From a bacterium (GTDB taxonomy: Bacteria > UBA8248), in contig CBDBEV010000001.1 in assembly GCA_965204535.1 (NCBI GenBank), positions 640,001 to 704,000 of the forward strand: DNA of 64,000 nucleotides. Reading direction: 5' to 3'. A program made the position numbers and the translations under genes. The notes beneath the pieces are model-generated. The model worked only from the letters and a program-made list of their open reading frames with translations. It was not told the origin of the DNA and did not search any database. This document shows, piece by piece, positions 425 through 30,822 of the stretch; within the stretch, counting starts at the first letter, position 1; each line of letters opens with the position of its first letter.

Positions 425-2233
425 TTGCAAGTCGCACTGCTTAAGATCGAGAATTTTCGGGGAATCCGGTCGGGTACAATACAGTTTCATAACCACACCG
501 TTCTGATAGGCCCTAACAACAGTGGTAAAACCACGATCATTGAGGCACTAGCGCTCGTGCTGGGCCGGGAGCGTCTGGTGCGCACCTTGACCGAGCACGA
601 TTTTTTTGGATCGAATCCTCAACCCGCTGATCGGATTAGCATCTTGGCAACGATCACGGGGTTCGAGCCGGAGGATTTTACAGCACACCCTGACTGGTTC
701 CGTGATGGACGTGGCGTTCCGAAATGGTTCGACCCTCAGACGGGAGAAGTGGTCGCCGAGCAAACGCATGAGAACCAATCGCTTGCGTGCCAGATCGCAT
801 TCGCCGCTCGATTTGACCATGAAAGCATAGAGGTCGAGACCGCTCGGTATTTTCACGATGACTCGGGTTTCGATGTTTTCGCGGAAGAAGGCTTTGTCAC
901 GGTTCCCCCAAAGCTTATCCGTGATGTCGGCTTTTTCCTCATTCCCGCAAGTCGCTCCTGGGATCGCATGCTTTCGTTCGGCTCCGAACTGTTCAGACGA
1001 GTAATTCGTACGGCTGGAGGATTGCCAGCGGAAACGGTCCTGGCCGAACGGGACCGATTGCGTAGTCCACAACAGCGGCTTGAAGACGATGAACGAATCC
1101 AGCCGATTGTAGATGAAGTCAATGCTGAGATCACGAATCTGTTGGGATTGGACATCAACCTGCAACTGAGGCTGACGGCAACGGACAGTAACAGCGTGCT
1201 CGAATCCATCGTGCCACATTTCCTGACCGGAGGGGAGCATGCTGTGCCATCGAAGCGAGAAGGGAGTGGTTTGATTTCGCTGCAAGTCCTGTTCTTGCTC
1301 TTACACTTCGGACAAAAACGACTCGAGAACGGCGAGAGTTTTTGTATGGCGCTTGAGGAGCCAGAGCTCCACCTTCCGCCAGCTGCACAGCGTCGAGTGC
1401 TGTCGCGTCTGCAATCACTTTCAACGCAAACGATTGTATCGACACACTCACCGTTAGTTGCAGGGTACTGCGATGCAACGGCTCTACTCGTTATCCGGAA
1501 TGACAGTGGTATGCTCAGCGCAGTACCGATGCTTGAACGACCTCTTGGGCAAGATGCGACAAACGCGATACGCAAGCTCTTCCAGATCAACCGGGTCGAA
1601 ACAGCGGCGGCAATGATGTGCGAATATATTATCGTGCCGGAAGGTAAGCTGGATTTCGACTGGCTGAGCCTTCTGATGCGGGCTGTAGAACTTGAGAAGG
1701 ATTCCGAGGAACTGTGCATGTTTGGCGTCCGGGTCGGATTGGTTCCGACAGGCGATGCAAAGATCAAGGAAACCTGCGAAATGCTCAGCAAGGCACACCC
1801 CAAGGTCTGTGCATTGGTAGACGGAGATACGGAAGGCAAGCGTTATGCGAGAGAGTTGGCTGAGCCCACTGCCGGTGTGGGTAAGGTGCTTTGTTGGCCG
1901 GATGAATGGATGATTGAAGATGTGGTTGGCTGGATAATTGAGGCGGATGAAGCTGAGGTGATGGAGCGATTAAGCAGGGAACTTGACGGCGTGACTGGTG
2001 ATCGTGCGGAACTCGTAGCGCAACTGAAATCCTATGATCGCACCCGATACGGGATGAAAGGCGATCTCATCGCTTATGAGGTTATTGCCAACGCCCTAGC
2101 TGATAATCCATCGTGCTTGCAGCGTGCACGCACAATGCTCCATGCGCTTGCTCAAGTATGCGCTGGTGAAACTACCCCGTATTTCGAGCAAGTGCGGGAC
2201 GATACCGTGTCTGGTTTGGTATTTAGACCATGA
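425..2233 (+). CDS. OLD-family ATP-dependent nuclease (ABC ATPase + TOPRIM), GajA-like
   Basis: IENFRGI, Walker A GPNNSGKT, Walker B LEEPELHLPP, H-loop STHSP, TOPRIM IVPEGKLD and LVDGD; GAAGGAG RBS before TTG. Confidence 0.85.
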   Translation: MQVALLKIENFRGIRSGTIQFHNHTVLIGPNNSGKTTIIEALALVLGRERLVRTLTEHDFFGSNPQPADRISILATITGFEPEDFTAHPDWFRDGRGVPKWFDPQTGEVVAEQTHENQSLACQIAFAARFDHESIEVETARYFHDDSGFDVFAEEGFVTVPPKLIRDVGFFLIPASRSWDRMLSFGSELFRRVIRTAGGLPAETVLAERDRLRSPQQRLEDDERIQPIVDEVNAEITNLLGLDINLQLRLTATDSNSVLESIVPHFLTGGEHAVPSKREGSGLISLQVLFLLLHFGQKRLENGESFCMALEEPELHLPPAAQRRVLSRLQSLSTQTIVSTHSPLVAGYCDATALLVIRNDSGMLSAVPMLERPLGQDATNAIRKLFQINRVETAAAMMCEYIIVPEGKLDFDWLSLLMRAVELEKDSEELCMFGVRVGLVPTGDAKIKETCEMLSKAHPKVCALVDGDTEGKRYARELAEPTAGVGKVLCWPDEWMIEDVVGWIIEADEAEVMERLSRELDGVTGDRAELVAQLKSYDRTRYGMKGDLIAYEVIANALADNPSCLQRARTMLHALAQVCAGETTPYFEQVRDDTVSGLVFRP

Positions 2234-3516
2234 CCGTTACCGCCTTCGAAGGTCCGGCCGGTACGGGGAAGACCCATAGCCTAATGGAACAACTCGCAGG
2301 TGCAGTCGAAAGGAATGCACTGGCTTCCCATGAGCGCGTTCTGGCGCTGACCTTTATGCATGGATCGAGACGGCGGCTCGATACGCGACTGCGTGAGATC
2401 GAAGCGCTCAGCGGGCGGTTCCAAGCGTCGACGTTGGATAGCTTTGCTTGGCGGCTGTGCCAGCGGTGGCGTTCACTTGCCCAGAGTCTCGGTCATGCCA
2501 TCCCTTCCGAAGGAAATTTTGACTTGACCTGCTCGCTCGCTGCTGCTTTGCTGGCCCGACCTGCTGTTAGCGCTTGGGTCTGTGCGTCCTATCCTTTCAT
2601 CGTCGTCGATGAGGCGCAGGATCTTAGCACCGAGCGATCCATGATGATCCAAGAAGCGGCGGTAGCATGTCATGTCCTACTAGCTTTCGATGAGTTCCAA
2701 TGCCTAAACCCGACCCTGCGCCCGATACCGATTCAGACATGGCTGCCGGAATTCTGCGAGCCTGTAAAACTTGATACATGCCGTCGTACCGAGGATGCCG
2801 AATTGCTTGAAGCGGCGCGGGCCGTGCGAGATGGACGCTCGGTAGATCGGGACGGACGGAGCTTTAAATTGGCGGTGACACCGGGCCGCCCCCAATATGC
2901 AGCCACTTACTTGGCAAATTTCATCGCTTGGCGTCGCGGCGGCAATGTCGCAGTGCTTACGCCGGCCCGTCGCGGCTTCGCCACCGACATTGTCGATCTT
3001 GTGCGAGCGGGGCCACTTGGAAAGAGTCGCCATGGACCGTTCCCGATCGAATGGGAAAACAGTGACGCAGCCGAACGCGATGCACTATGGGAAGGTTTGG
3101 CGATGCCTGCAAACTGCAACGTCTCCGATGCGCTTGCGCACCTGGAACCACACAGCCATTTGCCTGCAGTGAAGAGTTCCATGGAGTGGATCGGTCGTCA
3201 GCGGCGTGTTCTTGGCACCGACGAGTTCACGGCCAATGAAATCCAACGGCAGATTGACCGGGGGCTGGCGGCACGGCGTCACTATGGGAGCAGTGCTCGT
3301 ACGGAATACAGTGCGATGACGATCCATCAAGCGAAGAACCGGGAATTCGATCACGTTGTCATCATATGGCCGTACACGGTCCCAAGCGATGATGAGCAAA
3401 AGAGGCGATTGCTCTATAACGCGCTTACGCGTGCACGACGTAGTTGTCTAGTCCTAGTCCAGGCCCAGAAATTGGCTGATGCCCCTCCATTCGTGGGCGA
3501 AGCGGTTGTAGCCTGA
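2230..3516 (+). CDS. Short UvrD/Rep SF1 helicase, GajB-like
   Basis: GPAGTGKT, LALTF, VVDEAQD, TIHQAKNREFD, LLYNALTRAR; ATGA overlap with the upstream nuclease gene. Confidence 0.85.
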   Translation: MTVTAFEGPAGTGKTHSLMEQLAGAVERNALASHERVLALTFMHGSRRRLDTRLREIEALSGRFQASTLDSFAWRLCQRWRSLAQSLGHAIPSEGNFDLTCSLAAALLARPAVSAWVCASYPFIVVDEAQDLSTERSMMIQEAAVACHVLLAFDEFQCLNPTLRPIPIQTWLPEFCEPVKLDTCRRTEDAELLEAARAVRDGRSVDRDGRSFKLAVTPGRPQYAATYLANFIAWRRGGNVAVLTPARRGFATDIVDLVRAGPLGKSRHGPFPIEWENSDAAERDALWEGLAMPANCNVSDALAHLEPHSHLPAVKSSMEWIGRQRRVLGTDEFTANEIQRQIDRGLAARRHYGSSARTEYSAMTIHQAKNREFDHVVIIWPYTVPSDDEQKRRLLYNALTRARRSCLVLVQAQKLADAPPFVGEAVVA

Positions 3517-6110: not shown

Positions 6111-6395
6111 ATGAATGAAGCAGATATCGAAAAAATCAAGACAGATATTCGAAATATTGAAGTAAACCAACATGCGATACACGTTCTGATTCTTTTGCTA
6201 TTTACCTTCTCTGCGCCATCTAAAGATCTGCACGTATTGATAGAAAAATTTATGCGTTTGCTCGCAGTTACCCGAGATGGCTCAAATGTTGAAATTCTTG
6301 ATTTAAGCAAGGAAGCCCTTGAGGATATAAAAAAATTTTTCAGAGATATTCAAGAAACTTTAAATGAGCAGAGAGCGGAAAAGAATGATGCCTAA
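6111..6395 (+). CDS. Hypothetical helical protein (low-GC cargo)
   Basis: 94 aa, starts 1 nt after the previous stop; its stop overlaps the convergent transposase stop. Confidence 0.55.
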   Translation: MNEADIEKIKTDIRNIEVNQHAIHVLILLLFTFSAPSKDLHVLIEKFMRLLAVTRDGSNVEILDLSKEALEDIKKFFRDIQETLNEQRAEKNDA

Positions 6396-7030
6396 TTAGT
6401 GAGCTTCGCCCATGTAAGCCTTTTGCCCTCGAACCCCCGGACCACCGTGCCCATACGTTCGGCCGTCCCGAGCAAGCGGGTGTTGTGACGGCCGACAAAC
6501 TCCTGAACATAGCGATGCAGATGCCGGCGGTTCCAGAAGTGGTACGTTCCCTTGAAGCCGCGGCCGAGATTCTGTTTCTTGCGCCAGTGCTTGTTGCGCT
6601 CTAGGCCCCCGACGTACGTCTCATCGACTTCAACGGGGCCCTCTATCATGGCCTCGCCCTGCATCCAGCCTTCACGGATTCGGTGGCCCATAAACCAGGC
6701 GGTCCTCTGCGTGACGTCCAAGTATTCGGCCAGCCTGGTGCTCGGTATGCCCTTAGGGTTGGTGGTCAGCAGAAATATGGCGATGGCCCACTTGCGGAGC
6801 GGCAGCTTGGACCGGTGCATCGGCGTTCCGGTCCGGACACTGAAATGACGCCGGCAATCAGCGCACCAGTACGGTAGGGGTTTCTTGTTGGGGGCTGGCG
6901 ACACGTTGGTCGAGCCGCAACACGGGCAGATGAGCCCATCCTTCCAACGGACCCGTTCGAACCACTGGCGCGCCGCTTCATCGTCTGGGAACGTGTTGAG
7001 AATCTGTAGCAAAGGTATTCGTAGGGGCAT
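6392..7030 (-). pseudogene. IS1595-family transposase with in-frame internal deletion
   Basis: Zn ribbon CPCCGS...YWCADC, FSVRTGT, VEVDETYVGG, then LGRG joined directly to FKGTYH...HLHRYVQEF; central catalytic segment absent; only 212 aa. Confidence 0.85.
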
Positions 7031-7974: not shown

Positions 7975-9144
7975 TTAGCCCATGATTTCGGCAGCGATGC
8001 TCTTCGCGATCCGCTCCGCCGTCTCGCGCACCGATTCGCGCGACAGGTGAGCGTAGCGCGCCGTGGTCTCGACCTGGGCGTGGCCGAGCAGTTTCCCGAT
8101 CATCGGCAGGCTCTCGCCAAGCGCCAGCGCCCTGGATGCGAAGGAATGGCGCAGGTCGTGGAGCCGGACGTCTGAGAGACCCGCGCGCGTCCGGACGGTC
8201 TGCCAGGCGTCGTCGAGTTCGGTCATGTGCGTTCCCGGCCTCTTGCCGTGGATGACCCACAGATTGCCCTCGATGCGCGGGAGTTCCGCGAGGAGCTTCA
8301 CCGCCCGCGGCGAGAGCGGGACTACCCGCGCGCCCGTCTTGGCGTCGGGGAGCCTCAGTTCATTCTCCTCAAGCGCCACGTCCTCCCACCTTAATTTCAG
8401 TATCTCGTTCTTCCGGCACCCAGTCAGCATCAGGAGCCGGATGGCGGCCACCGCGGGCGCCGTGGCGCCTCCTCTTGTCCCGACCTCATCAAGCGTCTGC
8501 CCCAGGCGCGTGAATTCCTTGTCGGTCAGGAACCTCTCCCGCCTGCGCTCGGGGTGTTTGGTGATCGAGCGGCAAGGGTTCATTCCTTCCGGAACGAGTC
8601 CCCACTCACCGGCCAGGCGGTACATCAGGGAGAGGGTGCGGAGCGCCATGTTCGCGGCAACAGGCGTCGCGCACAGCCGCTGGTGCATCTCCGCGACCTG
8701 CGCGCGCTCGACCGCCGTGAGCGGCAGCTTCCCCAGGGCCGGCAGGATGTGCTTGCGGACCGCCGTGCGGACCGTCTCGAGGGTCTTCGGCTTGCACCGC
8801 ACCGCGGCGTATTCCGCGAGATACCTCCCGGCGAGTTCGGCCACGGTGGGGCCGCCGGCGGGCTTCTTCGGCTTGAGCGCCGCCTCATCGCCCGCCTTGA
8901 TCCGGGTGATGATCATGGCCGCCCTCTGGCGCGCCTGCTCGGCATGGACCACCCCGTACCGGCCGACCGCCACGCGCCTCGGTCCCTTGGGACCTCTTGC
9001 CTGGGCGACGTAGACCTTCGTCCCCGTGGGATAGACCCTGACGCCGAAGCCGGTGAGCTCCCTGTCCCAGAACACGGTCTCTTTCTCGGTATCGAGCTTG
9101 CCGACCATGCGGTTCGAGAGCGTCCTGTACTTGAGTTTCGCCAT
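7975..9144 (-). CDS. Tyrosine recombinase/integrase with N-terminal Arm DNA-binding domain
   Basis: FWDRELTGFGVRV arm domain; LTGCRKNEI, HDLRHSFAS, LLGH...TTARY catalytic residues. Confidence 0.92.
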   Translation of the reverse strand: MAKLKYRTLSNRMVGKLDTEKETVFWDRELTGFGVRVYPTGTKVYVAQARGPKGPRRVAVGRYGVVHAEQARQRAAMIITRIKAGDEAALKPKKPAGGPTVAELAGRYLAEYAAVRCKPKTLETVRTAVRKHILPALGKLPLTAVERAQVAEMHQRLCATPVAANMALRTLSLMYRLAGEWGLVPEGMNPCRSITKHPERRRERFLTDKEFTRLGQTLDEVGTRGGATAPAVAAIRLLMLTGCRKNEILKLRWEDVALEENELRLPDAKTGARVVPLSPRAVKLLAELPRIEGNLWVIHGKRPGTHMTELDDAWQTVRTRAGLSDVRLHDLRHSFASRALALGESLPMIGKLLGHAQVETTARYAHLSRESVRETAERIAKSIAAEIMG

Positions 9145-9170
9145 ATCCGATTCTTCCTCCTCGTCCTGAT

Positions 9171-10352
9171 TCACTCTTGAGCGGTCTGAGCGCCAAGGTG
9201 GGTTCCGATGCTGTCGCCCACCCGGGCGGCCGCCGCCTTCTCCGCGTCGCGCATCAGGTGCGCGTAGCGCGCCGTGGTCGATACCTTGGCGTGGCCGAGC
9301 AGCTTGCCGATCGCGGTGAGACCCTCGCCCAGCGCCAGCGCCCTTGATGCGTAGGAGTGCCTGAGATCGTGGATCCGCACGTCATCGAGACCGGCCCTGG
9401 CCCTGATGCGTTTCCAGTAGGAAGTGATATCCAGGGGACGACCCGCCCCGTTACGCCCGGGGAACACCCAGGGGTTTCCGGGTGAGCGCGCGATGCCGTC
9501 CAGCACACGCCTCGCGGGCGTCGTCAGGGGGACCATGCGCGGACCCGTCTTGGCGTCCCGGAGCCTGAGTTCCCCCGCCGTGTGGTCCACGTCGTCCCAG
9601 CGAAGGTTCAGTATCTCGCTCTTCCTGCACCCGGTCAGCATCAACAGCCTGATCGCGGCGAGCGCGGGCGGCCATACCGACCCGTCCGCCTCCGCGTCCC
9701 TGAGCGTCCCGCCCAGGCGGCGGAACTCCTCATCGCTCAGGAAGCGCTCGCGCCGGCGCATGCTGTAGGGCCGCACCGCGCGGCAGGGATTGTTCCCGGG
9801 AGGGAGCAGTTCCCACGTCTCGGCCAGCGAGAACATCTTGGAAAGGACGCCGAGCGAACTGTTGGCCATATCGGGCGTGTCGCAAAGACGGTGGTGCAGC
9901 GCCGAGACTTCCGCTCGCCCGACCTGTTCGATCTCCATTCCGCCCAGGGCAGGCAGGATGTGTTTCTCGATCAGGTACCGGTATGATGCAATGGTGCCCG
10001 GTTTCAGATGCGTCTCGACATGGTCCCGCATGAAGCGTTCGGCCAGGCCGGACACGGTGAGCGCAGGCTCGGGCGGCTTCGGTGTGGGAGACTCTCCGCG
10101 CTTGATGCGGTCGATGACGGGGACGGCGCGTTTTCTCGCCTCGTCGGTCGACAGCTCCCCGTGCCGGCCGATAGTCACGCGCTTAGGTCCCCCCGGCCCG
10201 CGGGTCTGTACCACGTAGACCTTGCGACCCGTGGGGTGGACACGCACGCCAAAGCCGGCAAGGTCCCGGTCCCAGAAGACGGCGTCCTTGCCTTCGACTT
10301 CGAGTGCGTCGACGGCGCGCTTGGTGAGTTTGAGTTCGCTTTTTTTGGGCAT
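9171..10352 (-). CDS. Tyrosine recombinase/integrase with N-terminal Arm DNA-binding domain (paralog of the neighbour)
   Basis: FWDRDLAGFGVRV; LTGCRKSEI, HDLRHSYAS, LLGH...TTARY. Confidence 0.92.
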   Translation of the reverse strand: MPKKSELKLTKRAVDALEVEGKDAVFWDRDLAGFGVRVHPTGRKVYVVQTRGPGGPKRVTIGRHGELSTDEARKRAVPVIDRIKRGESPTPKPPEPALTVSGLAERFMRDHVETHLKPGTIASYRYLIEKHILPALGGMEIEQVGRAEVSALHHRLCDTPDMANSSLGVLSKMFSLAETWELLPPGNNPCRAVRPYSMRRRERFLSDEEFRRLGGTLRDAEADGSVWPPALAAIRLLMLTGCRKSEILNLRWDDVDHTAGELRLRDAKTGPRMVPLTTPARRVLDGIARSPGNPWVFPGRNGAGRPLDITSYWKRIRARAGLDDVRIHDLRHSYASRALALGEGLTAIGKLLGHAKVSTTARYAHLMRDAEKAAAARVGDSIGTHLGAQTAQE

Positions 10353-10784: not shown

Positions 10785-10791
10785 GTTCTCC

Positions 10792-10876
10792 CCGCCGGTT
10801 TCATCTGTTGACCTGACTATGCCTCTCCCGCATTATTCGGGAAGCTTGAAACAACTCCTGAGGATTTAATGACCAC
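10792..10876 (+). promoter_or_regulatory. Promoter/RBS/start block, copy 1 of a direct repeat
   Basis: TTGACC-N17-CATTAT (10808-10836), GAGGA, ATGACCAC; recurs at 12584-12669. Confidence 0.8.
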
Positions 10877-12608
10877 GGATGCGCCTGCCGCCGCCTCGAA
10901 GATCGAACACTGGCGCAGACGCATGAGCCTCGTGACCGGCTGCGTCCTTTTCCTCTTTCTCATCACGCATCTTGGAAATCATACGCTGGGTCTGGCCTCG
11001 CTCGCCGCGATGGACGCGGGCAGATACTGGTTTCTGGGATTCTGGCGGAGCGTTCCGGGTTCGGTGCTCTTTTACAGTTCGCTCATCCTGCACACGGTGC
11101 TCGCGATGTACGGCCTGTTCAATCGCCGCAGCCTCCGGATGCCGCTCTGGGAGGCGGCCCAGATCGTCCTGGGCCTGTCCATCCCCCTGTTCATGATCTC
11201 ACACGTCGTGGGCACGCGCCTGGCGCATGAGTGGTTCGGCACGATCGATACCTACGAGCGCCTGATGTACCTCTACTGGGAGCGCTCGCCGGACGTAGGC
11301 CTCAAGCAGTCGATTTTTCTGCTCATCGCCTGGACGCACGCCTGCGTGGGCCTCCACTACTGGCTGAGGCTCAAGCCCTGGTACCAGAAATGGTTCCCGG
11401 CGTGTCTGTCCGTCATGGTGCTGGTGGCGGCCCTCTCGCTGGCGGGCTTCAGTCAGGGCGGGCGCGAGGCGGCGAGGCTCTCGGCGGATGCGGAGTGGCG
11501 GCGCGGGATGCTCAGCCGCACCGGGATGCCGGATCGCGCCCAGAGGGGAGAACTCCACCTCGCGCGCGACGCGCTCTGGTGGGGCTACCTGGGCCTGGTC
11601 GCGCTGGTGTTCGCGGGGCGGGGAGCGCGCTCTGCGCGGGAGCGGATGCGGAAGACGTTCCGCGTCGCCTATGCGGGCGGGCGCGAGGCGGTCGCGCCGG
11701 TGGGCTCCACCGTGCTGGAGGCGAGCCGCGCCGCAGATATACCGCATGCCTCCGTATGCGGGGGGCGCGGGCGGTGCTCCACCTGCCGGGTGAAACTGCT
11801 GGGCGGTGTGGATGCCCTGCCGCCCGCACAGCCGGAAGAGCAGCGCGTTCTGGAGCGCATCAAGGCCGCGCCCGACGTTCGCCTGGCGTGCCAGTTGCGC
11901 CCGGGGGCGGACCTCTCGGTCCTGCTCCTGCTGCCCGCAGGCGCGGACGCGGCGCAGGGTTTCGCGCAACGCGGCTACACCGCAGGCCAGGAGCGCGGCG
12001 TGGCCGTCCTGTTCGCGGATTTGAGGGGCTTCACGCGCATCGCCGAGAGGAAACTCCCCTATGACGTCGTGTTCTTCCTCAATTGCTACTTCGACGTGAT
12101 GGGCGAGGCGATCACGAAGGAGGGGGGACTCATCAACCAGTTTGTGGGAGACGGCGTCATGGCGCTCTTCGGCGTCGAGGAGGGTCCCGAAGAAGGCTGC
12201 AGGCAGGCCCTCTCGGCGGCCTGCGCCATCGTGGACGCGATTGAGGAGATGAGCGAGACGCTCGCTGATGAACTCGAAGAGCCCCTCCGCGTCGGAATCG
12301 GCGTACACACCGGCCCCACCGTGGTGGGCCACATGGGCCGGGGCGTGGCGAAGTACCTCACGGCGGTGGGCGATACGGTGAACACGGCCAGCCGCTTACA
12401 GGACCTGACCAAGGAATACGGTTGCAGGCTCGTCATCTCCGCCCAGGTGGCCGAGCGCGCAGGGGCGGACGTCTCCGCTTTTCCCGCGCACCAGATCGAG
12501 GTGCGTAACCGCGCAGCACCCCTCACCATCCGCGCGGTCGAGAATCCACACGACGTGGTATTGGGCCGGGGGAACGATTCGCACCGCCGGTTTCATCTGT
12601 TGACCTGA
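10869..12608 (+). CDS. Class III nucleotide cyclase with His-containing membrane domain and 2Fe-2S ferredoxin domain (CyaC-like)
   Basis: Multiple TMs with His residues; CGGRGRCSTC...RLACQ; FADLRGFT, FVGDGVMALFG, GDTVNTASRL. Confidence 0.9.
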   Translation: MTTDAPAAASKIEHWRRRMSLVTGCVLFLFLITHLGNHTLGLASLAAMDAGRYWFLGFWRSVPGSVLFYSSLILHTVLAMYGLFNRRSLRMPLWEAAQIVLGLSIPLFMISHVVGTRLAHEWFGTIDTYERLMYLYWERSPDVGLKQSIFLLIAWTHACVGLHYWLRLKPWYQKWFPACLSVMVLVAALSLAGFSQGGREAARLSADAEWRRGMLSRTGMPDRAQRGELHLARDALWWGYLGLVALVFAGRGARSARERMRKTFRVAYAGGREAVAPVGSTVLEASRAADIPHASVCGGRGRCSTCRVKLLGGVDALPPAQPEEQRVLERIKAAPDVRLACQLRPGADLSVLLLLPAGADAAQGFAQRGYTAGQERGVAVLFADLRGFTRIAERKLPYDVVFFLNCYFDVMGEAITKEGGLINQFVGDGVMALFGVEEGPEEGCRQALSAACAIVDAIEEMSETLADELEEPLRVGIGVHTGPTVVGHMGRGVAKYLTAVGDTVNTASRLQDLTKEYGCRLVISAQVAERAGADVSAFPAHQIEVRNRAAPLTIRAVENPHDVVLGRGNDSHRRFHLLT

Positions 12609-12669
12609 TCGAAGCTCTCGCGCATTATTCGGGAGGCTTGGAACTACATCCGAGGAAATCCATGACCAC
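12584..12669 (+). promoter_or_regulatory. Promoter/RBS/start block of mqnC, copy 2 of the direct repeat
   Basis: TTGACC-N17-CATTAT (12600-12628), GAGGA, ATGACCAC. Confidence 0.8.
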
Positions 12670-17995: not shown

Positions 17996-18254
17996 GGGGA
18001 CATGGGGTGTAGTTGTAATTCCGTCGGGCTCGCTCGTGGATAAGATGTTGGCAACGTGTGAATTGATTTAGTATGTTTGTAATGCTACCCATCAGGCTCG
18101 CTTGGTGGTCCCCGTTGCCCCGCGGCGCGGGGAATTTTTATGGGGTATTCACCTGAGCATTTTTATGGTATTATCGTATTTTATTCGTATATTGAAATTT
18201 TGAATATCTATGTCCAGAATGGGTGAATACAGAAAGTCGAAAGGGGAGGGAGGC

Positions 18255-18686
18255 ATGACGTCGGTTTATGATGTCGCGGAATATATTCTATCGAAAACCG
18301 GCAGGATCACGACGTGGAAACTTCAAAAGCTTGTTTATTACGTGCAGGCTTGGCATCTCGTTTGGGATGAAGAACCTTTGTTCTCCGAAGAGATTCAGGC
18401 GTGGGCGAATGGTCCAGTGTGTCCCGATTTATACAAAAAGCATCAAGGGTTTTTCCATGTCTCCACGGTCCGGGCGAGTGCCGACGCATTGTCCGAGAGC
18501 GAGTGTGAGACCGTTGATGTCGTGGTGGCTCATTACGGGGAATACAGCGGTCAGCAGCTGAGCGATCTCACGCATTCCGAACCCCCATGGATGAACGCAA
18601 GGAAGGGTATTCCGACCAGGGAAAGAGGCAATCAGGTTATCTCACATGAATCACTGGCGGAATATTATGGCTCCCTCCAGGAATAG
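18255..18686 (+). CDS. Panacea (SocA/GepA, DUF4065) antitoxin
   Basis: KLQKLVYYVQAW, LFSEEIQAWANGPV, LSDLTHSEPPW. Confidence 0.88.
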   Translation: MTSVYDVAEYILSKTGRITTWKLQKLVYYVQAWHLVWDEEPLFSEEIQAWANGPVCPDLYKKHQGFFHVSTVRASADALSESECETVDVVVAHYGEYSGQQLSDLTHSEPPWMNARKGIPTRERGNQVISHESLAEYYGSLQE

Positions 18687-19164
18687 AGGTAGACGGCGAA
18701 AAACAATTCCCCGACAATCCAGCCCCTCAAGCAGGGAATCCGTCAAGGAAGTTCGTCAGGAAATAAGTGAATCTCATGAGCATCTGGTGATTTGCTGGCA
18801 CGTGGGCAAGATCGACTGGGATGGCCCGTGGGGCATGAGGGCTTGCGCAAATCTCGATTTCAGGCGCCTCGTCGACGAAACGATTTCAAACTGGGAAACC
18901 ATGACTTGGGCCGAGTTGTATCGGGCGAGCGGCGGTAGAAGGCGAGGCACCAACCATCATCCGATCCTCGTTTCGAAACTTTCCTCGACCGCAAAGAAAA
19001 GACTCAAAGACATCGAAGAAGACGACATCGAGACAATCGTATCATTGCGGATCAACTCCAGGGAAAGACTGTATGGAATCAGGGCCGGTCAGGTGTTTGA
19101 GGTGCTCTGGTACGATCCGTGGCACGACAATCGCAGCAAAGCCGTCTGCCCGACCAGAAAATAA
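18667..19164 (+). CDS. Putative toxin partnered with Panacea (possibly RelE-like)
   Basis: Overlaps the antitoxin 3' end; SLRINSRERLYGIR...FEVLWYDPWH C-terminal motif. Confidence 0.65.
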   Translation: MAPSRNRGRRRKTIPRQSSPSSRESVKEVRQEISESHEHLVICWHVGKIDWDGPWGMRACANLDFRRLVDETISNWETMTWAELYRASGGRRRGTNHHPILVSKLSSTAKKRLKDIEEDDIETIVSLRINSRERLYGIRAGQVFEVLWYDPWHDNRSKAVCPTRK

Positions 19165-28163: not shown

Positions 28164-28691
28164 ATGTCCATCGTCACGAGGAGGGGAGACGACGGGAACA
28201 CCGATTTGTGGTTCGCCGACAGGGTTCCCAAGTATCATCCCCAGGTGCAGGCCTACGGCGCGCTCGATGAGGCGAAGGCGGCGCTCGGCCTCGCCCGCTC
28301 GACCGCGCCCGAATGGCTGAAGCCCGAAATCCTCAAAATCCAGAAAGACCTCTACCTTGTGAGCAGCGACCTGGCGACGCTCCGGGGCAAGCTCGGCAGG
28401 CTCAAAGAGCGCGTGGGCGCGGAGCAGGTCGCGTGGGCCGACGCGCAGGTGGCGCGCTATGAAAAGGAGATTCAGATCACCGACTGGGTCATCTCGGGCG
28501 ATTCTCCCTGCGGCGCCGCGCTGGACATGGCGCTCACCATCATCCGCCGGGGCGAGCGATGGTCGGTCAAGCTGCGGGACGAAGGCTACATCGACAACCC
28601 CGAACTGCTCGTCTATCTCAACCGCGTATCGGACCTCCTCTTCCTCATGGCCCGCGCCGTGGACCGGGGCGTGGAAGTGCCCGCTGATTAG
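28164..28691 (+). CDS. PduO-type ATP:cob(I)alamin adenosyltransferase
   Basis: TRRGDDGNT, AYGALDE, IRRGER, YLNRVSDLLF. Confidence 0.9.
   Translation: MSIVTRRGDDGNTDLWFADRVPKYHPQVQAYGALDEAKAALGLARSTAPEWLKPEILKIQKDLYLVSSDLATLRGKLGRLKERVGAEQVAWADAQVARYEKEIQITDWVISGDSPCGAALDMALTIIRRGERWSVKLRDEGYIDNPELLVYLNRVSDLLFLMARAVDRGVEVPAD
28531..28684 (+). repeat. Direct repeat copy 1 (3' 154 bp of the pduO-type gene)
   Basis: 148/154 identical to 30147-30300 by manual alignment. Confidence 0.95.
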
Positions 28692-28754: not shown

Positions 28755-29480
28755 ATGCCCAAAAACCAATCTTTATCCCCTCAACGCCTCGATGATGTGA
28801 AGCGGTTTTACGCTTCTCTCTTTACTCTTGAAGAACGTCTCGGAGGAGCGCGGCGATTGTCCGGTTGCTCCGGTCGAATGAAATGGCCGAAGCGCGGAAT
28901 ATATTTTTTTATGGAGGAAGGTGAAGTCCGCACCGAAACCGGGGATGGCCCGCGCATCGTGCGGGTCGGCACGCACGCTCTGAAAGCCGGCTCCAAAACC
29001 AAACTATGGTCGCGCCTGAAACAGCATAAAGGCACAGTTCGATCCGGCGGCGGCAATCACCGGGGCTCGATTTTCAGGCTTATCGTGGGAGCGGCCTTGA
29101 TGCAGAGAGATCGTCTCGATTTTCCCTCCTGGGGCAAGGGCGGCACGGCGCCGCGTGAAGTGAGAAAACTCGAACAACCCTTGGAAAGAAAAGTAAGCAC
29201 GATGATCGGCGACATGTCGTTTCTCTGGCTGGCCATCGAGGACGAGCCGGGTCCCCAAAGCAAGCGCGGATACATCGAAAGGAACGCAATCGCCTTGTTA
29301 AGCAACTATGGCAAGCAACCCGTCGATCCGCCCTCTTCTTCATGGCTTGGTTGTCATTGTGACAGGGAAAAAGTGCGGAACTCGGGCCTCTGGAACTCGA
29401 ACCACGTCGATCAAGACTACGCCCCGGCTTTTCTCGACGAACTGGCGCGCCTGATCGATGAGATGGAGATTCCCGGATGA
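28755..29480 (+). CDS. GIY-YIG-like nuclease (putative)
   Basis: RGIYFF...IVRVG...LWSRLKQH, a later IE and terminal WN, an order matching the GIY-YIG catalytic core. Confidence 0.6.
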   Translation: MPKNQSLSPQRLDDVKRFYASLFTLEERLGGARRLSGCSGRMKWPKRGIYFFMEEGEVRTETGDGPRIVRVGTHALKAGSKTKLWSRLKQHKGTVRSGGGNHRGSIFRLIVGAALMQRDRLDFPSWGKGGTAPREVRKLEQPLERKVSTMIGDMSFLWLAIEDEPGPQSKRGYIERNAIALLSNYGKQPVDPPSSSWLGCHCDREKVRNSGLWNSNHVDQDYAPAFLDELARLIDEMEIPG

Positions 29481-30130
29481 TCGTCGTCATCCAATGCGCC
29501 GCCCGGAAAAATCCCGAAGCCGGACATCTCTGCAAACGAGACGGACGAAAGGTGCTGTTCGTCGCCAACCCCGAAGCGGCGCCGGGTAACGCACACTACT
29601 CCTACGCGCGGCCGGATGATGCTTCCGACGCTGGGAAGCCGTGGCGAACCACCCTCCGTGAATACAATGCCGAACCTCGCGGCAACCCGCACGGCCTTCT
29701 TCCCGCCTGGCGGCTCTATGAAAACCCGGTCTATGAACTCTTGGAGAACCATTGCGGGCCGGAGCGGTTTTATATCCTCTCCGCGGGGTGGGGCTTGATC
29801 CGCTCCGATTTCCTGACACCGGCTTATGACATCACCTTCAGCCCCAGTGCTGATGCGTACAAACGCAGACGCAAGAAAGATTCGTATGACGATTTCAACA
29901 TGCTGCCAGAACAAACAGAGGAAGACATCGTGTTCTTCGGCGGCAAGGACTATGCGGGCCTGTTTTGCGGGTTGACGCAGAACGTCAAAGGGCCGCGATA
30001 CATCTGGTTCAATTCCAAAAGCCCGCCCAAAGCGACTGGCTGCACGCTTCGGCGGTTCCATACGAAGACCAGAACCAACTGGCATTACGAGTGCAGCAAA
30101 GCCTTTATCGAAGGAAATATCCAGGTTTAG
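29477..30130 (+). CDS. DUF6884-like protein (putative)
   Basis: VIQCAARK, PAWRLY, YILSAGWGLI...PAYD, FFGGKDY; ATGA overlap with the nuclease gene. Confidence 0.6.
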   Translation: MIVVIQCAARKNPEAGHLCKRDGRKVLFVANPEAAPGNAHYSYARPDDASDAGKPWRTTLREYNAEPRGNPHGLLPAWRLYENPVYELLENHCGPERFYILSAGWGLIRSDFLTPAYDITFSPSADAYKRRRKKDSYDDFNMLPEQTEEDIVFFGGKDYAGLFCGLTQNVKGPRYIWFNSKSPPKATGCTLRRFHTKTRTNWHYECSKAFIEGNIQV

Positions 30131-30146
30131 ACGAGGACGCCGATTT

Positions 30147-30304
30147 CGCTCACCATCATCCGCCGGGGCGAGCGGTGGTCGGTCAAGCTGCGGGACGAGG
30201 GCTACATCGACAACCCCGACCTGCTCGTATATCTCAACCGCGTATCGGACCTCCTCTTCCTGATGGCCCGCGCCGTGGACAGGGGCGTGGAAGTGCCCGC
30301 CTGA
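30147..30304 (+). pseudogene. Displaced 3' fragment of the pduO-type gene (direct repeat copy 2)
   Basis: Encodes LTIIRRGERWSVKLRDEGYIDNPDLLVYLNRVSDLLFLMARAVDRGVEVPA-stop, with no start codon. Confidence 0.9.
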
Positions 30305-30305
30305 A

Positions 30306-30822
30306 CGGCCTTTGAAAAAGCCCCCTCCTCAGGGGATAAAGGCAACCCCCCCTACCCCCCCTTGACAGGGGGGCAAGAAAAAACAAAACCCCCGCTGTCG
30401 GCGTCTGGTGTTGCCTTTTTATACCCCCCTGACAAGGGGGGGTAGGGGGGGTTGGTTTTGCAGGGACAGGCCCCCGTGCCTGTCCGAGGTCCCCACGAGG
30501 CAGTGCGGTTTTGTTCGTCATTCCGGCAATCAATGCCGACCGAGGAGGGAGGGATTGCCCGGAATCCAGGGACTTTGTTTTTGAATTTGCCTTTTCGCTT
30601 AATCGTTTTTCTTGGCCTTTCTGTGATTCGGTATCCCCGTCTGCTCTGGATTCCGGCATGCGCCGGAATGACGAACCAAGGCGGATGACGTGTGTGCCTG
30701 TAGGGGTCGTTCGCGAACGACCCCTACGATCAGGTTGACGAACAACCAGAACCGGGCGGACACACGGGTCCGCCCCTAGGGAAACCCGTTCCCTGCTTCC
30801 GGGGATTTTTCCAACAGCCCCC
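30306..30822. repeat. REP/MITE cluster D
   Basis: C7TTGACAG6 pair, GTCATTCCGGC...GGAATCC pair, GTAGGGGTCGTTCGCGAACGACCCCTAC palindrome, right end TTTTCCAACAGCCCCC. Confidence 0.85.

Follow-up and report, generated by a model that had tools for sequence, protein, structure and literature searches.

Two small overlapping genes form the cargo of a short insert at the 3′ end of pduO in a 64,000-nucleotide stretch of bacterial DNA (hereafter, the window). What does such a pair do, and how did it reach this site? A reading made from the sequence alone had proposed a restriction-like defense unit that combines a GIY-YIG-like nuclease with a DUF6884-like partner handling nucleotides or modified bases. 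The two domain assignments of that sequence-only reading, a GIY-YIG-type nuclease and a DUF6884/YaaA-fold partner, were upheld by the profile and structural matches described below. Several of the sequencing runs that contain the stretch are labeled sponge metagenome, and the bacterium probably lives in association with a sponge.

Layout of the islet

The pair (Table 1) lies between two direct copies of the last 154 nt of pduO (28531-28684 and 30147-30300, 96% identity), which enclose a 1.46-kb insert with no genes other than gene 1 and gene 2. The stop codon of gene 1 overlaps the start codon of gene 2 as ATGA. The islet is bordered on one side by an operon that includes pduO and a tartrate/isopropylmalate dehydrogenase gene and on the other side by an AI-2E transporter gene. 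The insert has a GC content of 0.559, compared to 0.648 and 0.62 in the flanks, and the GC3 values of the two cassette genes are 0.62 and 0.69, whereas pduO and the dehydrogenase gene upstream of it have values of 0.86 and 0.88; by itself, the GC dip is modest, since 21.5% of the 3260 1.4-kb segments genome-wide have a GC content of ≤0.57. The translations contain the motifs GIYFF (residues 48-52), VRVG (69-72), RLKQH (87-91), E175, and N214 in gene 1, and CAARK (7-11), PAWRLY (76-81), and ILSAGWGL (100-107) in gene 2. The ATGA coupling, the lower GC, the absence of any further gene between the repeat copies, and the motifs had all been quoted in the sequence-only reading, and each of them could be confirmed. 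Both genes are under purifying selection, with dN/dS values of 0.15 to 0.37 across seven genomes of the genus.

Table 1. Features of the pduO islet and its immediate surroundings, in window coordinates
Feature	Coordinates	Strand	Evidence
pduO, cob(I)alamin adenosyltransferase; intact gene of the host, with a duplicated 3′ end	28164..28691	+	PF01923, E 3e-42; TIGR00636 above cut-off
Left repeat copy, 3′ 154 bp of functional pduO; stop codon and tail travel with the cassette	28531..28684	+	Tail common to the other repeat-bearing genomes
Gene 1, 241 aa, GIY_YIG_3 / PDC-M57B putative endonuclease	28755..29480	+	PADLOC E 2e-90; PF26468; Atlas score 0.98
Gene 2, 217 aa, long DUF6884/YaaA-fold subfamily, predicted base reader	29477..30130	+	CxxxK (C7, K11), ILSAGWG; DUF6884 E 1.7e-5
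Junction of the cassette end with the orphan pduO fragment	30131..30146	+	Identical breakpoint in 4/4 repeat-bearing genomes
Right repeat copy, orphan piece of the pduO 3′ end with the stop codon and downstream flank that the recipient originally had	30147..30307	+	Tail closest to the empty-site sisters G011 and G016
Intergenic palindromic repeats of the host, located downstream of the islet and outside the cassette	30312..30720		Inverted repeats; dozens of genome copies

An open reading frame of 222 codons on the opposite strand (29417-30085) matched no family and was dismissed as a gene, and a promoter scan produced no credible promoter upstream of gene 1. The palindromic repeats downstream belong to families that are represented dozens of times in the genome and in its relatives; the first part of them is also found at the empty site of genome G016. 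The cassette is covered by contigs from four DNA-type sequencing runs. In one run, its depth was 112.5, compared to 71.5 and 73 in the flanks, but nearby pieces there were equally variable, and the difference was not read as amplification. These contigs included no joint that bypasses the cassette, although contigs would not be expected to reveal one; two RNA runs contained <10% of the sequence words.

Gene 1, a putative GIY-YIG-type nuclease

Gene 1 matches the PADLOC model PDC-M57B (PDLC04714) with an E value of 2.1e-90 over profile positions 3 to 234 of 238. The Pfam family PF26468, listed as GIY_YIG_3 in the Atlas output, is present on all of the 120 homologues listed among the 5721 found and on 100% of the members of the best Atlas clusters, with a score of 0.98. 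The local copy of Pfam gave no significant match for gene 1, NCBIfam had no match for either gene, and PHROGs returned just a weak family of unknown function; a sequence search of solved structures had no significant match for either gene, and none of the annotated phage records carried gene 1.

In an alignment of 138 sequences that extends down to 39% identity, residues Y50, R70, H74, R87, H91, E175, and N214 are conserved in 98 to 100% of the members. The AlphaFold2 model of gene 1 (pLDDT 87.8) places Y50 on the strand 48-58, R70 on the adjacent strand 66-74, R87 and H91 on the helix that follows (84-92), and E175 on a later helix (170-182), and also includes N214. By residue order and by the model, gene 1 has a complete candidate active-site set of the GIY-YIG enzymes (Tyr, Tyr/Lys, Arg, His/Tyr, Glu, and Asn) on a ββα core. 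Residues Y50, R70, R87, H91, E175, and N214 parallel, in the same order, Y63, K73, R84, Y88, E149, and Q169 of the restriction enzyme R.Hpy188I. A basic residue replaces the second tyrosine in R.Hpy188I, as described for that enzyme (PMC2630997), and gene 1 likewise has a basic residue at this position.

A Foldseek search with the gene 1 model gave no match at an E value of ≤0.001. When 361 Foldseek chains were subjected to a second structural alignment, five entries emerged, all of them GIY-YIG nucleases: the N-terminal domain of UvrC, R.Eco29kI, and R.Hpy188I. The best match, to the UvrC GIY-YIG domain, had a Z score of 4.0, within the range of common structural arrangements, and an rmsd of 2.9 over 86 residues. 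Compared to these three proteins, gene 1 has much larger insertions, the 86 aligned residues being spread over positions 33 to 216 of the model, and shares 9 to 14% identity with them; unlike them, it is encoded in a unit that has neither a methylase nor a UvrAB partner. Taken alone, the structural comparison of the model is consistent with a GIY-YIG fold, but weak. Given the conserved site, gene 1 can be expected to have nuclease activity.

Gene 2, a predicted long member of the DUF6884/YaaA fold

Gene 2 matches DUF6884 (PF21818) with an E value of 1.7e-5 and 25.4 bits, under the 30-bit Pfam gathering cut-off, and DUF6884 is carried by 10 to 22% of the members of the best Atlas clusters. Its match to the PADLOC model PDC-M57A (PDLC04712; E value of 7e-6, PADLOC thresholds not applied) covers residues 92 to 168 of 217 and profile positions 38 to 114 of 138, and DpdC is matched weakly, over about 38 residues. 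The subfamily of gene 2 comprises 2041 homologues and 375 clusters at an E value of ≤1e-30. Profile comparison relates it to a short DUF6884 form with a probability of 95.8 and to a third, YaaA-like form with a probability of 97.0.

Both motifs defined for DUF6884, CxxxK and LSAxxG (PMC11701544), are present in gene 2. Among 135 sequences, C7 is conserved in 96%, K11 in 98%, and L101, S102, A103, and G106 in 99 to 100%; the structure model has a pLDDT of 94.9. These motifs and the profile homology are common to gene 2, YaaA, YfjM (a DUF6884 member), and DpdC. Gene 2 differs from them in an insertion of ∼60 residues after the CxxxK motif and in a C-terminal extension, which carries a conserved NWHY motif of its own.

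DUF6884 has been described as a YaaA-related domain with a basic DNA cleft and a modeled flipped nucleotide (PMC11701544). YaaA itself is reported to be an oxidative-stress DNA-binding protein (PMC11701544, PMC10220248), and YfjM was found to be enriched on abasic and RNA-base lesions (PMC10220248). DpdC, which has the same fold, is described as hydrolyzing dPreQ0 to dADG in DNA (PMC12839542); unlike in the DpdC context, neither DpdA nor DpdB is encoded near gene 2. Judging from its motifs and profile matches, gene 2 is predicted to be a long, divergent DUF6884/YaaA-fold protein and represents a candidate base reader. The lesion binding by YfjM fits a role in repair as well as it fits one in defense.

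Coupling, fusion, and loss of partners

Gene 1 homologues were compared in 7 genome loci, 16 viral loci, and 80 metagenome loci, 69 of which were assessable and 11 of which end too soon; several of the metagenome loci are near-duplicates, so that the counts do not represent independent events. The long partner is found immediately downstream of gene 1 in all seven genome loci, two of which come from relatives in the same genus. In the assessable metagenome loci, the long partner is intact in 34, broken in 13, and cut by the contig end in 9; three loci have the short DUF6884 form, one has the third form, and nine have no partner, which puts a YaaA-fold partner into 60 of the 69. An NTGA overlap joins the two genes in 62 of the 64 loci with the long partner. 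The viral loci mostly (11 of 16) carry the short partner, and the long one was seen in a single case.

Fusions are also common. Among the best 120 long homologues, the nuclease is fused to a protein of the YaaA-fold subfamilies in 93 (18 long, 50 short, and 25 of the third form), and 27 are without a YaaA-fold partner. The accessory domains fused to members of the family are mostly small, apparently DNA-binding modules. In the triple fusions P0276 and P0286, the nuclease and the long partner are followed by a C-terminal HhH-GPD glycosylase-like domain with a cysteine cluster; the Pfam match to HhH-GPD is weak (E value of 0.011) and confined to P0276.

Either gene can also be found without an intact partner. 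Gene 2 is broken in 13 of the 47 full-length loci, with all seven conserved residues of gene 1 retained, although several of these cases are single frameshifts that may be assembly errors. In locus L034, the partner is interrupted by an IS1595 element, and in L057 it is largely deleted, in both instances next to a gene 1 with an intact site. Conversely, gene 1 is frameshifted in genome G022, and the long partner occurs without gene 1 alone behind ilvD (L172), in fusion with a Swt1-like HEPN domain, and in the Roseomonas plasmid NZ_CP024584.1 (L167:5916-7672). In this plasmid, one inspected of five such Roseomonas plasmids found, the gene preceding it codes for 319 aa and has a PD-(D/E)xK-type motif but lacks similarity to GIY-YIG; the neighborhood contains RecB-like and HNH nuclease genes. 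Its association with a PD-(D/E)xK-type gene and its fusion to HEPN suggest that the long partner acts like a reader with exchangeable effectors.

These data bear on the view of the pair as a restriction-modification or toxin-antitoxin system, in which gene 2 would either mark the host DNA, similarly to DpdC, or inhibit a gene 1 product that otherwise cuts. The invariant Cys and Lys residues and the DpdC-related fold mean that gene 2 could be an enzyme, and long target duplications of the kind seen at pduO were first described for restriction-modification genes (PMC2853133). In type II restriction-modification and toxin-antitoxin systems, the toxic gene is expected to be lost without its protector, whereas here the partner is broken in 13 and absent in 9 of the 69 assessable loci, with intact-site copies of gene 1 persisting next to an interrupted, truncated, largely deleted, or missing gene 2. 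Neither of the two genes between the repeats is a methylase, and a classical type II toxin-antitoxin pair would not be expected to be fused into one chain as often as is seen here. The apparent tolerance of either gene to the loss of an intact partner, together with the lack of a methylase, makes this view quite unlikely and argues instead for a reader that licenses a nuclease.

Insertion at pduO and spread in the genus

Within the 23 available genomes of the genus, the cassette is present at pduO in seven, four with the repeat and three without it, and was found nowhere else. At the same site, 12 of the remaining genomes are empty, and one each has a short relic of gene 1, a gene for a GmrSD_C protein, IS elements only, or a contig end. 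The synonymous divergence of the cassette is about twice that of its flanks (for G000 and G012, 0.43 and 0.41 versus 0.16 and 0.22). The four repeat-bearing genomes (G000, G002, G012, and G020) share one junction. The tail of the right repeat copy nevertheless resembles each genome's own empty-site relatives: G011 and G016 in the case of G000, G002, and G012, and G013 and G005 in the case of G020, where the resemblance is limited to the first 12 bases. The simplest reading would be that one illegitimate joint was formed and then spread by homologous recombination between host backgrounds; the flank tree, which is only partly resolved, does not point to a direction of transfer.

The pduO islet combines a repeat of >30 bp, an insert of <20 kb, empty sites in relatives, and the absence of any mobility gene, the features by which insertion with long target duplication is recognized. 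The repeat is thus the trace of this integrase-free, known mode of insertion. As in the cases described by Furuta, Abe and Kobayashi in 2010 (PMC2853133), a small defense-type cassette has no integrase or transposase, the duplication exceeds 30 bp, and relatives have empty sites. In contrast to that description, it is invariably a core gene whose outer end is duplicated here, cargo other than restriction-modification genes is carried as well, and up to about 30 gene ends of a single genome show the pattern. In a survey of the 3064 genes of the genome, an orphan copy of the 3′ end was found downstream of the gene in 24 cases and upstream in none; copies of the 5′ end were found upstream in seven cases and downstream in two, and the respective numbers for gene middles were 0 and 1, which amounts to a nearly strict polarity. 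A few of these cases are tandem paralogues that slipped past the filter. Of the 31 footprint regions, 20 were scanned for content, leaving aside the pduO islet, evident paralogue arrays, and a few others; toxin-antitoxin, methylase, AbiE, or DarTG genes were recognized in 11 of them. In a member of another phylum (L003), the same pair is enclosed by a duplication of another gene's end; no flanking repeat was found at the other 27 of the 28 loci examined.

A selfish or neutral cassette, whose nuclease spreads its own allele via the pduO duplication or which simply hitchhikes, would also account for the elevated synonymous divergence and for the same junction on different host backgrounds. This explanation is very unlikely, as many other genes of the genome show this duplication footprint around unrelated cargo, three genomes of the genus have the pair without the repeat, and L003 is the sole locus with a flanking repeat among the 28 others. 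The preferred interpretation, recombination-driven spread of a defense cassette, implies that the long target duplication could let the cassette enter other empty pduO alleles by ordinary homologous recombination. The genus series would then record the integrase-free spread of such a cassette, with a junction that arose once and was passed between host backgrounds.

An integrase-driven island was considered and rejected, as there is no recombinase in or beside the islet and the nearest recognized integrases are ∼18 kb away. The window encodes two tandem tyrosine integrases with Arm-binding domains (7975-10352), beside an IS1595 fragment (6392-7030). A second direct repeat (10786-10876 and 12578-12669; 93 bp, 82% identity) surrounds a gene coding for a 579-aa protein. 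Examples of other islets in the genome of the window (G000) are found at C1:531805-537457, C2:1895356-1898961, and C2:2786556-2792001.

Genomic neighborhoods

The three nearest genes on each side of the pair in 28 loci with the long partner (126 proteins in total) were compared to PADLOC models, setting aside generic matches to ATPases, ligases, inteins, HIT proteins, and group II reverse transcriptases. A defense-type neighbor was recognized in nine of them (L003, L009, L011, L012, L030, L032, L039, L062, and L071), by raw count; 19 had no such neighbor. Many of the contigs are short. In L012, the pair is located between Azaca/PD-Lambda-3B and Hma genes. The GmrSD_C protein found at the pduO site in genome G007 (L164:1340-2353) consists of 337 aa.

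Several viral loci carry the pair as morons among head genes. The related prophage-like contigs L118, L119, L122 to L125, L127, and L128 have the long partner in L118 and the short one in most of the others. A different arrangement is seen in the viral contig L130 (4701-8701), where a four-gene operon codes for QueC, a fusion of the short DUF6884 with GIY_YIG_3, a SIR2 and kinase-like protein, and a nucleoside 2-deoxyribosyltransferase. This operon looks like a separate 7-deazaguanine-linked defense system; it provides the only direct link to 7-deazaguanine chemistry among the loci examined, and its partner is of the short form.

The window contains two further gene pairs. One (425-3516) consists of a gene for a 602-aa ATPase with a weak Toprim domain that overlaps a gene for a 428-aa UvrD-like helicase, which, by its architecture, we take to be a Gabija/OLD-like defense pair. 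In the other (18210-19164), a SocA/Panacea antitoxin-like gene overlaps an open reading frame of 172 codons without a family; these two are likely to form a toxin-antitoxin pair.

The distribution of the pair is relevant to a possible role in accessory DNA repair, where gene 2 would recognize a lesion (an abasic site, a ribonucleotide, or an oxidized base) and gene 1 would incise beside it in a UvrC-like manner. Such a role would agree with the binding of YfjM to abasic and RNA-base lesions, the link of YaaA to oxidative stress, UvrC as the best structural match, the weak glycosylase domain at the end of P0276, and the many copies that stand alone between housekeeping genes. A repair function is nevertheless unlikely for a pair with very patchy distribution, which, besides the 7 of 23 genomes in the genus, is seen in 8 of 51 genomes in the phylum, gene 2 being found in 4 of 401 genomes of another class. 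The frequent decay of the pair, its insertion as a moron among prophage head genes, and the GmrSD-type gene swapped in at the same pduO site also speak against repair.

Abortive infection would make use of the same coupling, fusions, and defense context. In that scenario, a phage-derived signal, such as abnormal nucleotides or replication intermediates, is sensed by gene 2, which then turns on gene 1, and gene 1 degrades the DNA of the host as well as that of the phage. Gene 1 appears to be harmless alone, as could be expected of an effector that needs activation, and one operon combines a fusion with genes for QueC, SIR2, and nucleoside deoxyribosyltransferase proteins. The pair contains neither a sensor ATPase nor a TIR or membrane domain, and the fused accessory domains are mostly small and apparently DNA binding, as would suit targeting of marked DNA, which makes this scenario rather unlikely.

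Proposed mode of action

A defense role of some kind is probable for the pair. The more specific interpretation, that it is a modification- or lesion-dependent module of a reader and a nuclease, resembling type IV restriction, has about an even chance of being correct. In such a module, an unusual nucleotide would be flipped out upon DNA binding by the YaaA/DUF6884-fold protein, and the DNA that carries this mark, probably that of a phage, would then be cleaved by the GIY-YIG protein. The two proteins would cooperate physically in this scheme. The leads for the target are 7-deazaguanine derivatives and abasic sites; the former is an indirect link, suggested by the weak DpdC matches and by the one QueC operon with a short partner. 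The cassette itself would owe its position behind pduO to recombination at the 3′ end of this gene without an integrase, which would have left the long target duplication.

A bolder and unlikely version of this scheme would make the pair a representative of an undescribed class of type IV systems. A hypermodified base of phage DNA (for instance, a 7-deazaguanine), or the abasic site that its removal leaves, would be caught in the conserved Cys-Lys pocket of the YaaA/DpdC-fold protein, which would pass the DNA on to interchangeable nucleases of the GIY-YIG, PD-(D/E)xK, or HEPN type. If true, this would provide the first function for DUF6884 and a counter to a modification by which phages are shielded from ordinary restriction enzymes.

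Comparison with known systems

The sequence-only reading did not recognize the pair as a named system and proposed that the lack of a DefenseFinder or PADLOC match, together with enrichment in defense islands, would support its novelty. This part did not hold: PADLOC matched gene 1 to PDC-M57B (E value of 2e-90) and gene 2, weakly, to PDC-M57A (E value of 7e-6), which means that the pair is not unlisted, and an unlisted system could be ruled out. The PDC systems are 145 predicted candidates (Payne et al., bioRxiv 10.1101/2024.01.29.577857), and the main text of that preprint reports no test of them. A full-text literature search that included few subscription papers, using the terms PDC-M57, DUF6884, GIY_YIG_3/PF26468, and YaaA with GIY-YIG, found no paper that names the pair.

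The closest relative among listed systems is PDC-M57. Gene 1 fits PDC-M57B over almost its full length, and its partner has the CxxxK and LSAxxG fold of PDC-M57A, to which, according to profile comparison, it is homologous as a member of a different subfamily. In most phage loci and in many fusions, PDC-M57 has a DUF6884 gene of ∼140 aa upstream of the nuclease or fused before it. In the pair described here, the partner is located downstream, is 217 aa long, and matches PDC-M57A within residues 92 to 168. By these sequence comparisons, the pair is a variant of candidate PDC-M57 with a reversed gene order and a longer partner. Its novelty does not extend beyond the inverted gene order, the subfamily of longer partners, and the exchangeable nucleases of this subfamily.

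Both the pair and its mode of insertion were already listed, and their value lies in testability rather than surprise. The families are large (5721 homologues of gene 1 and 2041 of gene 2) and without a demonstrated function. As a compact, intact variant that is under purifying selection and has no accessory genes, the pair is a clean construct with which PDC-M57-type systems could be tested for the first time, and which could help to find out what the YaaA/DUF6884 fold reads. Among the control genomes, a PDC-M57B match was seen in Haloferax volcanii, a genetically tractable host that has a native homologue.

Among characterized types of defense, the pair is comparable to the type IV fusions of a winged helix (wH) with GIY-YIG (PMC11037411), which, as described there, likewise have separate sensing and cutting modules, a GIY-YIG domain, and no cognate methylase. 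In contrast to the wH, PUA, or SRA readers of type IV systems, the predicted reader here is a YaaA-fold protein with a conserved Cys-Lys pocket, for which dependence on DNA modification is a proposal.
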